Notes: generated by a model from the sequence alone, not told the origin. A DNA stretch of 64,000 bases from Candidatus Multivoradales bacterium (GCA_965223155.1 CBDCVR010000014.1:1-64000); one strand, 5' to 3'. Shown: positions 30,239-33,536, numbered from the stretch's first letter. Numbers and translations are program-made.

Positions 30239-30577
30239 ATGGCCATCAACCTGCAAATGGAAGCGCCGCCGCTTCATGAAGACGCCTCAGGGGCGCTGCG
30301 CGTCGGGAATTCCCACGTGCTGTTGGACCTGGTGATCCGCGCTTTTCAAGACGGCGCCACCCCCGAAACGATCCACCAACGCTATCCGACCGCGGGGTTG
30401 CCGGATATTTACGCCGTGATCGCCTACTACCTGCGGCACCCGGCGGATATTGACGCCTATCTCGCTGAACGCGACCAACACGCCCGCGACGTCCGTCAGC
30501 GTATCGAACGGCATCAAGGCGACTTGGCGGGTCTACGCGACCGGCTCGCCGCCCGCCGGGGCTCTACTTCAGGGTGA
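30239..30577 (+). CDS. DUF433 antitoxin
   Basis: LRVGNSHVLLDLVI...GATPETI..YP..L.DIYAVIAYY. Confidence 0.85.
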   Translation: MAINLQMEAPPLHEDASGALRVGNSHVLLDLVIRAFQDGATPETIHQRYPTAGLPDIYAVIAYYLRHPADIDAYLAERDQHARDVRQRIERHQGDLAGLRDRLAARRGSTSG

Positions 30578-30580
30578 GCT

Positions 30581-30934
30581 GTGTTACGTCTGTTAAGCGA
30601 TGAAAATTTCAACGGAGATATCGTCCGCGGCCTTCTGCTTCAGCATCCCGGTCTCAATCTGCGCCGTGTGCAAGATGTGGGGTTGGAGGGCGCAGAAGAT
30701 CCTGCCATACTTGTATGGGCTGCTGAAAATGATCGCATTTTGGTGACCCACGACCGCGCGACCATGCCCGCCTTTGCCTACGAGCGAGTTGCTGCGGGAC
30801 AGACCATGCCGGGGATTTTCATCTTGAATGACCGCATTGCGATTCGTCAGGCAATTGAGGAATTATTGATGCTTGATGCATGTAGTGAGCAGGCGGAGTG
30901 GGTGGGGTTAGTGGTTTATTTGCCTTGGGTTTAA
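30581..30934 (+). CDS. DUF5615 PIN-like toxin
   Basis: LLSDENF, DPAILVWA, RILVTHD. Confidence 0.85.
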   Translation: MLRLLSDENFNGDIVRGLLLQHPGLNLRRVQDVGLEGAEDPAILVWAAENDRILVTHDRATMPAFAYERVAAGQTMPGIFILNDRIAIRQAIEELLMLDACSEQAEWVGLVVYLPWV

Positions 30935-30942
30935 GTTGGGTT

Positions 30943-31712
30943 TCACGACGAACTTAAGCAACGAAAGCCCAAGCGGCTGTAGCGGAAGTCGGGCGAGATC
31001 GCGTCGCGATGTACGGCCTGCACGACCTCTGCGGCGCCACCCCAGCTCCCGCCTCGAACAACGCGATGGCCACCCGCTTCTGTAACACCGTCAGACTCTA
31101 CTGCAACGCGTAACTGATCATCTGGATAATCCTGGCACCACTCCCATACATTACCTAGCATATCATAGAGCCCCCAGGCATTCGGCTGCTTGAGACCCAC
31201 ATCATGCGTTTCATCGCCGCTGTTCTCGCCATACCATGCAATAGAGTCCAAATCTTCATCATAGCGCATAGTCGCCGTCCCGGCTCGATATGCGTACTCC
31301 CACTGCGCTTCGGTCGGCAAGGTCAATGTCAACTCAGGCAACTGCCGATTGAATGCGGCTAGAAATGCCTGGCAGTCCCCCCAGCTCACATTCTCCACCG
31401 GTCGCTTTGCACCCTTGAACCAACTTGGATCATCACTCATAACAGCCTGCCACAGCTCTTGTGTACACGGCGTGTCAAACAGCCAGAACCCTCTGGCACT
31501 GCTACGTCATGCGGTGATTGTTCCCAGGGAAACTGCCTCTCTTCGTTCTCTGGCAAGCCCATAATAAAACGGCCGGGCGGCATCCATCGCATGCGCTGCT
31601 CCACCTCGCCGATGCGGAAGGCGCACCACGGGCCATAGGCGTCTTGCCCCCAGGCCGAGGCCCAGACTGGTGGACAGCCGGTTGCAAGGGGATGTGAAGT
31701 GAGAGTGGCCAT
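30943..31712 (-). pseudogene. FGE-sulfatase (SUMF1) domain protein, frameshifted at ~31495
   Basis: PVWASAWGQDAYG, MRWMPPGRFIMG, then in a shifted frame GFWLFDTPCTQELW, PVENVSW, LPTEAQWEYA, GLYDMLGNVWEWC, LGFR. Confidence 0.8.
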
Positions 31713-31794
31713 AGGATTGTGAACCTGATATTGGTTAGATCACACAAGCTGACTGCAAATCAACTACCACCCGCAGAGCGGGTGGTTTGATCAT

Positions 31795-31930
31795 GCCCCC
31801 CGGAGGGGGGCGTTTCTTGTGAAGAACCCCCTCAAGGGGGGCATAACCAAGTAAGCCCCTCAAGGAGCTCAGGGGACTTGAGTCAGCCCCTCAAGGGGCT
31901 CTACTATCTGGGGATGGCCCCAAAGGGGCC
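31795..31930. repeat. Array of 5 palindromic repeats (consensus GCCCC-TCAA-GGGGC) with unique 13-15 bp spacers
   Basis: Units at 31795, 31827, 31854, 31885, 31916; period 28-31 bp. Confidence 0.9.
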
Positions 31931-31959
31931 TAGACCCGCCTCGCTGTCACCTGATAATC

Positions 31960-32400
31960 TTAGATGTTCTCACCTAAACGCAATTGCTCATCTTCCCGTT
32001 GATCGGCCTCATCCTGATTCCGGATATACCTGCGAATCATCTCTTCGTCTAGCCCGACGGTGCTCACGCAGTAGCCCTTCGACCAGAAATGGGACCCCGT
32101 AAAGTTGCGCTTCCGGCCAAGATACTCCCGGTGAATTCGAATCGCCGACTTCCCTTTGAGACGACCGATCGCTGTCGCCACACTATATTTCGGCGGGATG
32201 CTCAGGCATAAATGCACGTGATCCCGCATCGCATGCCCTTCGATCAGCTCGATCTCAAATTGCTCGCAAAGCTCTCGCAGTATGCGGCCGATGTCTTTAC
32301 GAAGCCTACCGAAGATTGCTTTCTGTCGATATTTCGGTACGATAACCACATGGTAACGGCAGCACCATTTCACGTGGCTTTGCCGGCGCCATTCTCTCAT
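31960..32400 (-). CDS. tnpA: IS200/IS605 Y1 HUH transposase
   Basis: YHVVIVPKYR, DHVH, LKGKS, FWSKGY, IRRYIRNQ; RBS AAGGAG. Confidence 0.95.
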   Translation of the reverse strand: MREWRRQSHVKWCCRYHVVIVPKYRQKAIFGRLRKDIGRILRELCEQFEIELIEGHAMRDHVHLCLSIPPKYSVATAIGRLKGKSAIRIHREYLGRKRNFTGSHFWSKGYCVSTVGLDEEMIRRYIRNQDEADQREDEQLRLGENI

Positions 32401-32401
32401 G

Positions 32402-32451
32402 GTGGTTTCTCCTTTCGATGGCCTTGGCGGGTCCACCGAAGGAGAAACCAC
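32402..32451 (-). promoter_or_regulatory. RBS-sequestering stem-loop in the tnpA leader
   Basis: TGGTTTCTCCTT...AAGGAGAAACCA inverted repeat covering the Shine-Dalgarno; typical of IS200. Confidence 0.8.
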
Positions 32452-32518
32452 ATCTGACGCCTACAATCAACGCCGGAACGGCAGAGCCTATGGGAGTCTC
32501 ACCGCCAGAGGCGGTGGC

Positions 32519-32671
32519 TTACCAGGGTCTAGTTACAACCACCTGCAACTCAATCTCAGCCTCTTCGACTACCAACTTGGGTTCCAAGACATCACCTTGC
32601 ACCTGAGCCAAGGCCAGCTCGCGACGAAGCTCGGCGATCAAATCAGATAGGGGAATACGGGACTCAGCCAT
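32519..32671 (-). pseudogene. Trypco2-like (trypsin co-occurring domain 2) gene truncated by the IS
   Basis: Manual translation MAESRIPLSDLIAELRRELALAQVQGDVLEPKLVVEEAEIELQVVVT runs into the IS left end. Confidence 0.72.
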
Positions 32672-32688
32672 CGAGACGCCTTTCATCC

Positions 32689-33015
32689 TCAAATGACAAT
32701 AACTCGTTCCGCCTCATCATGATCTGGGCGAACAATATGAATGCGCACCTTGCAGTTGAGACGGGCTAGAAAACGCATGAGACGCTCAACGCTATAATAC
32801 GAAAACTTCCCGCTCTTGAGCCTCGACACTTCCGGTTGTTTAACGCCTAGGATTTTGGCCGCCTCCGTCTGAGTCATCTGCTGCTTTTCCAGAATACGGA
32901 AGATTTCCGCGCCGAGTTCAGCTTTGAGTAGCTCTTCTTTGGCCTCCTCATCTGAGAAGCCTAAATCTTTAAAAATGTTGCTGGAGCCCTCTTCAATCAC
33001 TATGTTTTCATCCAT
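32689..33015 (-). CDS. XRE-family HTH protein (orphan HigA-like antitoxin)
   Basis: GSSNIFKDLGF, MTQTEAAKILGVKQPEVSRL, SVERL. Confidence 0.85.
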   Translation of the reverse strand: MDENIVIEEGSSNIFKDLGFSDEEAKEELLKAELGAEIFRILEKQQMTQTEAAKILGVKQPEVSRLKSGKFSYYSVERLMRFLARLNCKVRIHIVRPDHDEAERVIVI

Positions 33016-33107
33016 ACTCAGTTCTCGTTCAGCGGGGTCGCACTATCCACCTACCCTTTGCTGGTTACTCGTCATGTCACCCGCATTGTAACACAACCCG
33101 CCATCCC

Positions 33108-33536
33108 TCACCCCTCGCGCCCGTAATCCCACGACACCACCCGATGCGGCGCGACCTCGATATACGCCGACCCAGGAGACGCCTCTTGCGACCGCTGATC
33201 CTCCGGCACGCCGCGCAGGCGCTCGGCCTCGCGCCGCAGCCGCAGCAGGTTCTCGGCGTCCGTATACACACGAGCGCGCCCCTGAATCATCACGCCTTTG
33301 ATGTCGCGCATCGTGCTGCCGCTCTCCAGCGCCAGACTCACCTGCGAATTGCGCTCGATATTTTTGACCTTCTGCGTCTCCGCCCGGCAGCCCAGGTAGA
33401 CGTTGTCCCCCAGGCGAAAATAGCCCAGCGGCACGCTGTGGGGAAAGCCGTCGCGGCCTATCGTAGAAAGCATGATCCAACCGGGTTTGCTGTCGAGAAA
33501 CTCGTGCACTTCCTGAGGCGTCATCTTGGCCGGCAT
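33108..33536 (-). CDS. Pyridoxamine 5'-phosphate oxidase-like (PPOX, probably F420-dependent)
   Basis: LSTIGRDGFPHSVP, KVKNIERNSQVSL, VVSWDY. Confidence 0.85.
   Translation of the reverse strand: MPAKMTPQEVHEFLDSKPGWIMLSTIGRDGFPHSVPLGYFRLGDNVYLGCRAETQKVKNIERNSQVSLALESGSTMRDIKGVMIQGRARVYTDAENLLRLRREAERLRGVPEDQRSQEASPGSAYIEVAPHRVVSWDYGREG

Follow-up and report, generated by a model that had tools for sequence, protein, structure and literature searches.

An IS200-group element and its row of hairpins

Within a 64,000-nucleotide stretch of DNA from Candidatus Multivoradales bacterium (GCA_965223155.1, CBDCVR010000014.1:1-64000; hereafter the window), five short hairpins follow one another at positions 31795-31930, between the stop codon of the transposase gene tnpA and the terminal hairpin of an insertion sequence of the IS200 group. 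A first-pass annotation, made from the sequence alone, had read this region as five palindromes separated by four spacers, resembling a CRISPR array and possibly built by the transposase TnpA as a record of captured sequence. Palindromes and spacers read exactly as quoted there, and their location was confirmed by the Y1 open reading frame (ORF) on one side and the hairpin at 31766-31786 on the other. The analyses presented here indicate that the row belongs to the right ends of a whole family of elements, that its stems appear to be kept by selection, and that the hairpins are a structured 3' segment of an IS200-group element, probably acting in cis as a sense-strand stack of stem-loops without sequence capture. 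The features of the locus are the following:

About 31758-32531, minus strand: IS200-group insertion sequence of ~774 bp, present in one copy in its own genome
31916-31930, minus strand: module 1, the outermost, 29 nt past the tnpA stop, GGCCCC-ttt-GGGGCC; RNA -11.2, DNA -6.0 kcal/mol
31885-31900, minus strand: module 2, AGCCCC-ttga-GGGGCT; RNA -10.3 kcal/mol
31854-31869, minus strand: module 3, AGCTCC-ttga-GGGGCT, with one sense-strand T·G pair; RNA -7.3, DNA -2.1 kcal/mol
31827-31840, minus strand: module 4, CCCCC-ttga-GGGGG; RNA -8.6 kcal/mol
31795-31811, minus strand: module 5, also called H1, GCCCCCC-tcc-GGGGGGC, adjoining the right-end hairpin; RNA -14.5 kcal/mol
31787-31794, minus strand: linker of 8 nt between H1 and the terminal hairpin, sense strand ATGATCAA, candidate guide sequence
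31766-31786, minus strand: right-end subterminal hairpin ACCACCCGC-tct-GCGGGTGGT, 9 bp, candidate transposase-binding hairpin
31758-31765, minus strand: right-end tail AGTTGATT, ending at the cleavage site
31960-32400, minus strand: tnpA, Y1/HUH transposase of 146 aa from ATG (MREW...), with DHVHL as HUH motif and YIRNQ as catalytic tyrosine motif
32402-32451, minus strand: leader stem-loop with a 13-bp stem, in which the ribosome-binding site AAGGAG, immediately 5' of the ATG, is paired
32500-32516, minus strand: left-end subterminal hairpin CACCGCC-tct-GGCGGTG, candidate transposase-binding hairpin, kept in relatives
32532-32535, minus strand: TAAC, conserved putative target tetranucleotide abutting the left end, outside the element

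The stabilities of the five hairpins range from -7.3 to -14.5 kcal/mol as RNA, compared to -2.1 to -7.8 kcal/mol as DNA, and a repeat finder placed them at start-to-start distances of 28, 31, and 30 nt. The single plus-strand mismatch of module 3, C·A, reads as G·T when the minus strand is folded; a C>T change at 31857 in the four public runs X1, X3, X15, and X16 restores AGCTCC/GGAGCT, and relatives also carry AGCTCC/GGAGCT. That the regular series exceeds chance was borne out by its folding, by its rarity in the genome and by its recurrence in relatives. The 213-nt stretch folds with z-scores of -6.98 (RNA) and -6.56 (DNA), with 0 of 200 shuffles folding as well, and strict G/C hairpins occur genome-wide at 1.48 per kb, leaving seven 125-nt segments that hold four of them, two of which are at this locus. 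Outside the window, four strict G/C hairpins within 125 nt also lie at C15:823287-823395, C15:216921-217035, and C14:1082740-1082845 of the same genome. Tandem Repeats Finder (TRF) detected no tandem repeat in the window array, in agreement with the earlier description of the spacers as mutually unrelated, and the periodicity in the window is thus one of structure and not of sequence. Since the modules are palindromes of one type, modules 2 and 3 and modules 4 and 5 can also pair into two long composite hairpins (31795-31900), and the minimum-energy folds of both RNA and DNA use these composite pairings. Two of the linkers, 2 and 4, form small palindromes of their own (GAC-tcaa-GTC and TTCTT-cac-AAGAA).

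The four closest relatives (L088-L091; 87-91% TnpA identity) carry the same five modules, position for position. When these were aligned with the window, 8 of 60 columns were variable in the module stems and 1 of 18 in the stem of the right-end hairpin, compared to 6 of 18 in the loops and 39 of 67 in the spacers. Modules 1, 2, and 4 are paired in all five close sequences and all five module helices are 100% paired across the five-sequence alignment, the pairing falling to 42-64% once the partners were slid by 1-3 columns. Seven one-sided stem changes were identified, all of them leading to U·G on the tnpA-sense strand, and the single compensatory double change, from C-G to U-A, is found in H1 of L091. 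Family-wide, 98 of 127 distinct 6-bp cores are perfect, and the 17 cores with one internal odd pair comprise 12 with a sense-strand G·T, none with C·A and five with other mismatches, 3 of the 12 G·T cores belonging not to typical modules but to a hairpin that is conserved close to the stop codon. Hence, it is well supported by these sequence comparisons that selection keeps all five modules as hairpins on the tnpA-sense strand. This strand is the mRNA strand and, by the known mechanism of the family, also the transposing strand.

Contigs from four public runs fit the window up to 31757/31758 and 32535/32536 and then diverge from each other, and a single 764-nt contig (X1) covers 31758-32521 with five differences from the window; the public-run data are contigs throughout, from which transcript ends, strand and level are not readable. 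In multi-copy relatives, the flanks part 8-9 nt past the terminal hairpin, after ...agttgatt. As the ends are defined by contigs and the flanks of the relatives diverge only beyond the terminal hairpin, the array is internal to the element, which is itself an ordinary new addition to the IS200 group. The element encodes a Y1 transposase of ~150 aa (Pfam Y1_Tnp, 1.1e-38; NCBIfam equivalog transpos_IS200, 139.8 bits at a cut-off of 55), carries subterminal hairpins at both ends without terminal inverted repeats, holds tnpA as the sole ORF in its 774 bp with no second one, and has a leader stem over the ribosome-binding site, the arms of which (32402-32414 and 32439-32451) are 100% complementary, with a homologous stem in relatives. 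Mobility is apparent from the relatives, of which nine copies are found in Singulisphaera and several in other metagenome-assembled genomes (MAGs), and the element of the window diverges at both contig ends. Its own genome (4.0 Mb, 66.5% G+C) contains one DNA copy and one Y1_Tnp match, and when 401 genomes from its phylum were searched at the DNA level, four beyond this one gave only weak partial matches and no close copy turned up among those searched.

Directly 5' of the left end, TAAC is found in the window and in 13 of the 14 sub-clade relatives read, L090 carrying TCAC, and in view of the known habit of the family of inserting 3' of a fixed tetranucleotide we infer that TAAC is the insertion target; no empty site was recovered. 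The left-end hairpin of IS200 is described as a bidirectional terminator in an excerpt of PMC4513863, and by analogy the left-end hairpin of our element may bind the transposase and act as a terminator. The right-end hairpin (RNA -16.3, DNA -10.7 kcal/mol) resembles it. The linker that joins H1 to the terminal hairpin contains TCAA, the complement of TTGA in the right-end tail, and relatives keep this linker as (c)atcctcaa or tcatcaa. Judging from the IS608 mechanism, as excerpted from PMC3201880, the 8-nt linker is a candidate guide sequence.

Hairpin modules in related right ends

Right ends were compared in the best 80 of 338 confirmed relatives on genome contigs and in the best 80 of 500 on metagenome contigs, and 154 records (window included) had a complete tnpA 3' end. 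The right-end hairpin was recognised automatically in 129 of the 154; the other 25 include truncated contigs and three close relatives with a one-mismatch hairpin, as the caller is anchored on the right-end hairpin and misses the mismatch-bearing ones of L088, L090, and L091. It replaced a first, unanchored chain caller, which broke at degenerate modules and ran on into flanking hairpins. Among 100 distinct stop-to-hairpin sequences, the approximate module counts were zero in 2, one in 33, two in 26, three in 16, four in 3, five in 11, six in 5, and seven in 4. Neighbouring modules are 27-30 nt apart from centre to centre in 234 of 258 pairs, and the consensus following a module is TTCC. Right-end hairpins preceded by modules are also found in an element of the ISMex34 family, in one on a Desulfosarcina plasmid and in one of Enterococcus faecium (48% identity), and it is well supported that the hairpin series is a family trait and not peculiar to the window. 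On a quick TnpA tree of 80 rows, which omits duplicates and records without a recognised right-end hairpin or with an incomplete or interrupted tnpA, the module number has undergone at least 25 changes, and arrays of at least four modules occur in two separate clades.

In 85 of 98 distinct arrays, the innermost module, H1, is located 24 nt from the loop of the terminal hairpin. T opens the loop of H1 in 94 of 98 arrays, as it does that of the terminal hairpin (98 of 100), but in only 65 of 160 outer modules. It is thus well supported that H1 is an ancient accessory hairpin, near-universal in relatives and in a fixed register beside the right-end hairpin. The four outer modules, which is likewise well supported, are old tandem duplicates of a 28-nt unit of hairpin and linker, the linkers having diverged since. 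In a sister clade, TRF identified periods of 28 and 56-58 nt in the arrays of L106 and L092, each spacer nearly copies the others as well as the linker between H1 and the terminal hairpin (CTCCTGCAACAGT compared to CATCCTCAA), and elements differ by whole 28-nt units, with three in L101, four in L103, six in L092 and seven also among the sisters. The relatives show head-to-tail units of variable copy number, as in a minisatellite, whereas the unit of the window is recognisable only by hairpin and period. As the sister-clade arrays score better at 56-58 nt than at 28 nt, duplication seems often to have copied two modules at once. In L092 (1538-1685) and L106 (1090-1266), two hairpin types, GCCCCC/GGGGGC and GCCCTC/GAGGGC, alternate. 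Ordinary tandem-repeat slippage would explain the duplications, and no tie to TnpA was found in the sequences. The earlier idea of an expandable array is accordingly correct over evolutionary time, given the range of 0-7 modules, the at least 25 changes and the whole-unit differences, but nothing links the duplications to TnpA as their builder.

The third linker of Singulisphaera-type arrays (L025 and L028-L030) begins, letter for letter, with the second linker of the window (GACTCAAGTC, 31875-31884), a 10-nt match reached by 0 of 200 shuffles. The TnpA clades of the window and of these arrays are far apart on the tree, and the other four linkers of the window showed no match beyond chance to arrays of other clades. 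The shared GACTCAAGTC may go back to an old common unit, or parts of right ends may have been exchanged, or both linkers may have converged on a small palindrome. Some right ends are disrupted: identical foreign sequence directly follows the tnpA stop in L065 and L079, where the right end has been cut or replaced, as is also the case in L078, while L081 stops 6 nt past its second module and L041 is broken within its third. A more distant relative of the IS200 family on a Salmonella enterica plasmid (L170; 43% identity) has the beginning of an H1-like hairpin, GCCCCCC TTATAG..., at 860-885, and is uninformative because the end of an IS4-family element interrupts this first hairpin. In one Phycisphaerales MAG, every copy of the element (L055-L062) is situated within short G/T-rich tandem repeats, gggtttc/ggatttc-like on one side and their complement on the other, which suggests a strong preference for insertion into a satellite-like repeat.

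Comparison of homologues, which the first-pass annotation had proposed, showed that the number of units varies from 0 to 7, but that the spacers are positionally homologous at 87-91% TnpA identity. The nine full copies in one Singulisphaera genome have arrays that are 99-100% identical, and each array match in this genome adjoins a tnpA match, with no solo arrays. Invariance across copies, which had been named beforehand as an argument against a recording array, is thus seen within a genome but not among lineages. Searched with at most one mismatch against their own genome, the four window spacers had no other match bar one chance-level one-mismatch hit of a single spacer. Hairpin units outside insertion sequence copies were looked for and none was found: in the 4.0 Mb, CCCCTCAAGGGG occurs two times, both in the array, and GCCCCTCAAGGGGC once, so that the palindromes are not dispersed, and the Singulisphaera arrays all abut tnpA. 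The transposase scores 24.1 bits with REP_Tyr_transpos, compared to a cut-off of 80. As far as tested, the element indeed has no tnpB or cas gene for company: the TnpB zinc ribbon (PF07282) gave 0 matches in its genome (98.66% complete) and control matches in 8 of 14 genomes, and nothing Cas-like was detected among 18 ORFs of at least 110 aa scanned in 21-43 kb nor among seven ORFs beside the element. The Rfam search of 31000-33200 returned only chance-level hits (18.6-22.4 bits, compared to gathering scores of 32-76). The units themselves are palindromes of 14-17 nt that are 71-92% alike, and not the near-identical repeats of ~23-47 nt of a CRISPR array.

Possible roles of the hairpin row

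The most likely function of the row, which we infer from its sequence and by analogy, is that of a barrier or stabiliser in the 3' untranslated region (3' UTR) combined with an accessory role at the right end. In the 3' UTR of the tnpA transcript, the modules would fold into successive stem-loops of great stability, which would impede transcription past the right end into the neighbouring gene and protect the 3' end of the tnpA mRNA. In addition, the right-end hairpin and the guide linker would be framed by H1. The number of modules would drift via repeat slippage with no sequence being captured. This 3'-UTR role is favoured by the stability of the hairpins as RNA, by the enrichment of terminator-like sites (9, compared to 1.6 ± 1.2 in shuffles), by a weak signal in two RNA libraries, in which contigs run from tnpA through the array to 31757/31761, by the left-end terminator of IS200, and by analogy with repetitive extragenic palindromes (REPs), which, according to an excerpt of PMC6006769, make mRNA more stable when located in 3' UTRs and are able to terminate transcription. 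The features that a consensus scan flagged as terminator-like include the right-end hairpin and module 3, both on the sense strand, and, on the other strand, module 5.

Several observations weigh against this 3'-UTR role. The RNA-library contigs are from ~90% identical relatives, are possibly DNA and cannot show 3' ends, and since their stop at 31757/31761 coincides with the end of the element, it says nothing on termination. Only TTCC follows the modules, with no U-tract, and they are thus not canonical intrinsic terminators. The shuffle control for the five-sequence alignment was not significant (108/500), because the stems hardly vary, and the module counts of the family survey are approximate, the automatic caller sometimes including an unrelated hairpin just past the stop codon. 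Furthermore, sense-strand G·T pairs are also present in the bona fide right-end hairpins of L118, L119, L154, and L067. As true right-end hairpins share the wobble pairs, the G·T bias names the strand and not the molecule, RNA or top-strand DNA, and it was dropped as a test between the two. Finally, the fixed register of H1 and its terminal-like loop point to a DNA-level role linked to TnpA rather than to RNA.

Such a role is at the core of the main rival, which we regard as possible but rather doubtful, namely that H1, and perhaps the outer modules, act as a single-strand-DNA accessory by folding beside the right-end hairpin on the top strand at the replication fork and thereby tune excision. 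Either the second hairpin site of the TnpA dimer would bind H1, or H1 would shield the guide linker and right-end hairpin from competing base pairs and from single-strand DNA-binding protein (SSB), for which the 11-16-nt linkers would be too short. Besides the 24-nt register (85 of 98) and the T-first loop that H1 shares with the terminal hairpin (94 of 98 and 98 of 100, compared to 65 of 160 in outer modules), this explanation accounts for module stems that are about as strongly conserved as that of the right-end hairpin (8 of 60 and 1 of 18 variable columns), for a pairing bias that falls on the transposing strand, and for the complementarity between TCAA of the linker and TTGA of the tail; moreover, IS608 TnpA is a dimer with two hairpin sites, as excerpted from PMC3597680. 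On the other hand, the outer hairpins are weak as DNA (-2.1 to -6.0 kcal/mol), their CCCC/GGGG stems are unlike both end hairpins, it would be strange for a precise nucleoprotein architecture to have a module number that varies from 1 to 7, and the exclusion of SSB is itself only presumed. A more speculative and quite improbable extension is a two-hairpin right end, in which one TnpA dimer would read H1 and the terminal hairpin in their 24-nt register, while the outer modules would be nested pseudo-ends or decoys with guide-like linkers, titrating TnpA or offering alternative cleavage registers, and gain and loss of modules would be driven by the transposase and set the rate of transposition.

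It is unlikely, in our view, that only H1 and the terminal hairpin matter and that modules 1-4 are tolerated, slowly decaying slippage products of a 28-nt repeat. Such a neutral minisatellite would fit with the frequent changes in copy number (at least 25 on the 80 rows), with close elements that differ by whole units, with single-module elements being the commonest class (33 of 100), and with the unconstrained loops of the outer modules. However, unselected decay ought to disrupt stems no more slowly than spacers, whereas the spacers have diverged in 39 of 67 columns and all four outer-module stems stay fully paired; all one-sided changes give wobble pairs, with the compensatory double change lying in H1, and the family-wide count is 12 sense-strand wobble pairs compared to 0 C·A. 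We consider highly improbable a CRISPR-like recording array built by TnpA, or a scaffold or guide resembling omega-RNA for a nuclease of TnpB/IscB type, for which regular short palindromes, dissimilar spacers and the location at the right end, the place of the guide RNA in TnpB elements, are the sole support. The spacers are inherited and positionally homologous or copies of each other, the arrays are identical in nine copies, and neither a TnpB zinc ribbon in the genome, a Cas-like ORF among the 18 nor an Rfam family at threshold was identified, while a variable number of modules is ill-suited to a fixed ribonucleoprotein scaffold. The recording array was therefore ruled out on account of its inherited spacers, its identical copies and the lack of a Cas-like product among the ORFs scanned, and the guide-RNA locus on account of no partner nuclease in the element or genome and no Rfam match. 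With spacers that are inherited or duplicated, the same among copies and matched elsewhere in the genome at no more than chance level, the first reading survives only in part, in that the row grows and shrinks over evolutionary time; the TnpA decoy and the small RNAs that it also suggested are conceivable.

Genomic setting and related systems

The element is located within a small accessory-gene island of lower G+C, with a DUF433/DUF5615 pair on one side and an HTH_37 pair on the other. Beyond its left end, a 57-aa ORF (32519-32692, minus strand) matches positions 1-43 of the 78 of Trypco2 and ends within the left end of the element, which therefore seems to have cut a Trypco2-type gene; beyond the right end, there is no obvious continuation of the Trypco2 domain. 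Upstream of the 57-aa ORF, and overlapping it by 4 nt, lies an HTH_37/Cro-type gene (32689-33015, minus strand), suggesting that the two form a small two-gene module. On the other side, a FGE-sulfatase-type gene (30943-31712, minus strand) starts 46 nt past the right end of the element. It appears split into the overlapping ORFs 31437-31712 and 30943-31440, of which only the latter matches the FGE-sulfatase profile of Pfam, from position 84 on, and is probably a frameshifted pseudogene. Next to it, a DUF433 and a DUF5615 gene (30239-30934, plus strand) lie 3 nt apart in a toxin-antitoxin-like arrangement.

The element shares with IS200 of Salmonella and E. coli a tnpA-only content, a size of ~0.7-0.8 kb, a Y1/HUH transposase, similar subterminal hairpins and a leader stem sequestering the ribosome-binding site, whereas the excerpt of PMC4513863 describes two left-end inverted repeats and no series of right-end hairpins, where our family has H1 and 0-6 further modules. 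The nearest precedent for extra right-end hairpins is a remark, in an excerpt of PMC7290912, on IS605 elements of Halanaerobium hydrogeniformans with three potential right-end hairpins, one of which is thought to be functional, and with a 28-nt insert separating two right-end types. Unlike our element, these carry tnpB and their right end probably encodes a guide RNA, and the excerpt describes no periodic series of a single module and no copy-number variation. The guide RNAs of TnpB and IscB (omega-RNA, or right-end element RNA, reRNA) are also structured RNAs that are encoded by the right end and stop at the element boundary, but here there is no tnpB, and the row of hairpins, being simple and variable in number rather than fixed, is unlike an omega-RNA scaffold. 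CRISPR arrays likewise have regularly spaced, partly palindromic units, whereas here the units are not identical, the spacers of 13-15 nt are inherited and do not vary among copies, and no Cas-like product was detected among the ORFs scanned.

As to the possible mode of action of the stack, the closest analogue is REP palindromes, which as bacterial interspersed mosaic elements (BIMEs) and in REPtrons, the latter with a REP-associated tyrosine transposase (RAYT, or TnpA-REP), are short, G+C-rich, often clustered and tied to a Y1 HUH enzyme. In contrast to REPtrons, the transposase is here of IS200 type and not a RAYT, and the palindromes are not dispersed and are carried inside a mobile element. 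Class 3 of PMC6006769, as excerpted, similarly occurs in Planctomycetes, Acidobacteria and Proteobacteria with several hairpins beside a Y1 gene, but has NHVH and YV..EQ motifs and hairpins at high copy number in the genome, whereas in the window the protein is of class 1 (IS200-type) with DHVH and YIRNQ, and the hairpins are confined to the element. No strictly placed accessory hairpin, no module row of variable copy number and no periodic series of hairpins is described for IS200 right ends in the papers that a full-text literature search returned; the 2015 family review, ISfinder and TnPedia were outside its scope, and a prior description is thus possible. The excerpted text of preprint 10.64898/2026.09.22.753630 makes no mention of IS200.

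For specialists, the finding is a modest refinement rather than a surprise. Elements of IS200 type rank with the smallest and most widespread transposons, and it was at their right ends that the guide RNAs of TnpB elements evolved. A large tnpA-only subfamily, spanning Acidobacteria, Planctomycetes, Proteobacteria and Firmicutes, carries at this site a strictly positioned accessory hairpin together with a copy-number-variable row of stem-loops that appear to be selected. For annotation, this means that such periodic palindromes beside a Y1 transposase belong to the element and are not a CRISPR array or a new RNA gene. Were the two-hairpin right end with decoys true, it would be a built-in, evolvable rheostat of a single-strand transposon. 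More generally, the hairpin row offers a testable handle on the control of read-through, of mRNA fate or of right-end recognition in these elements.

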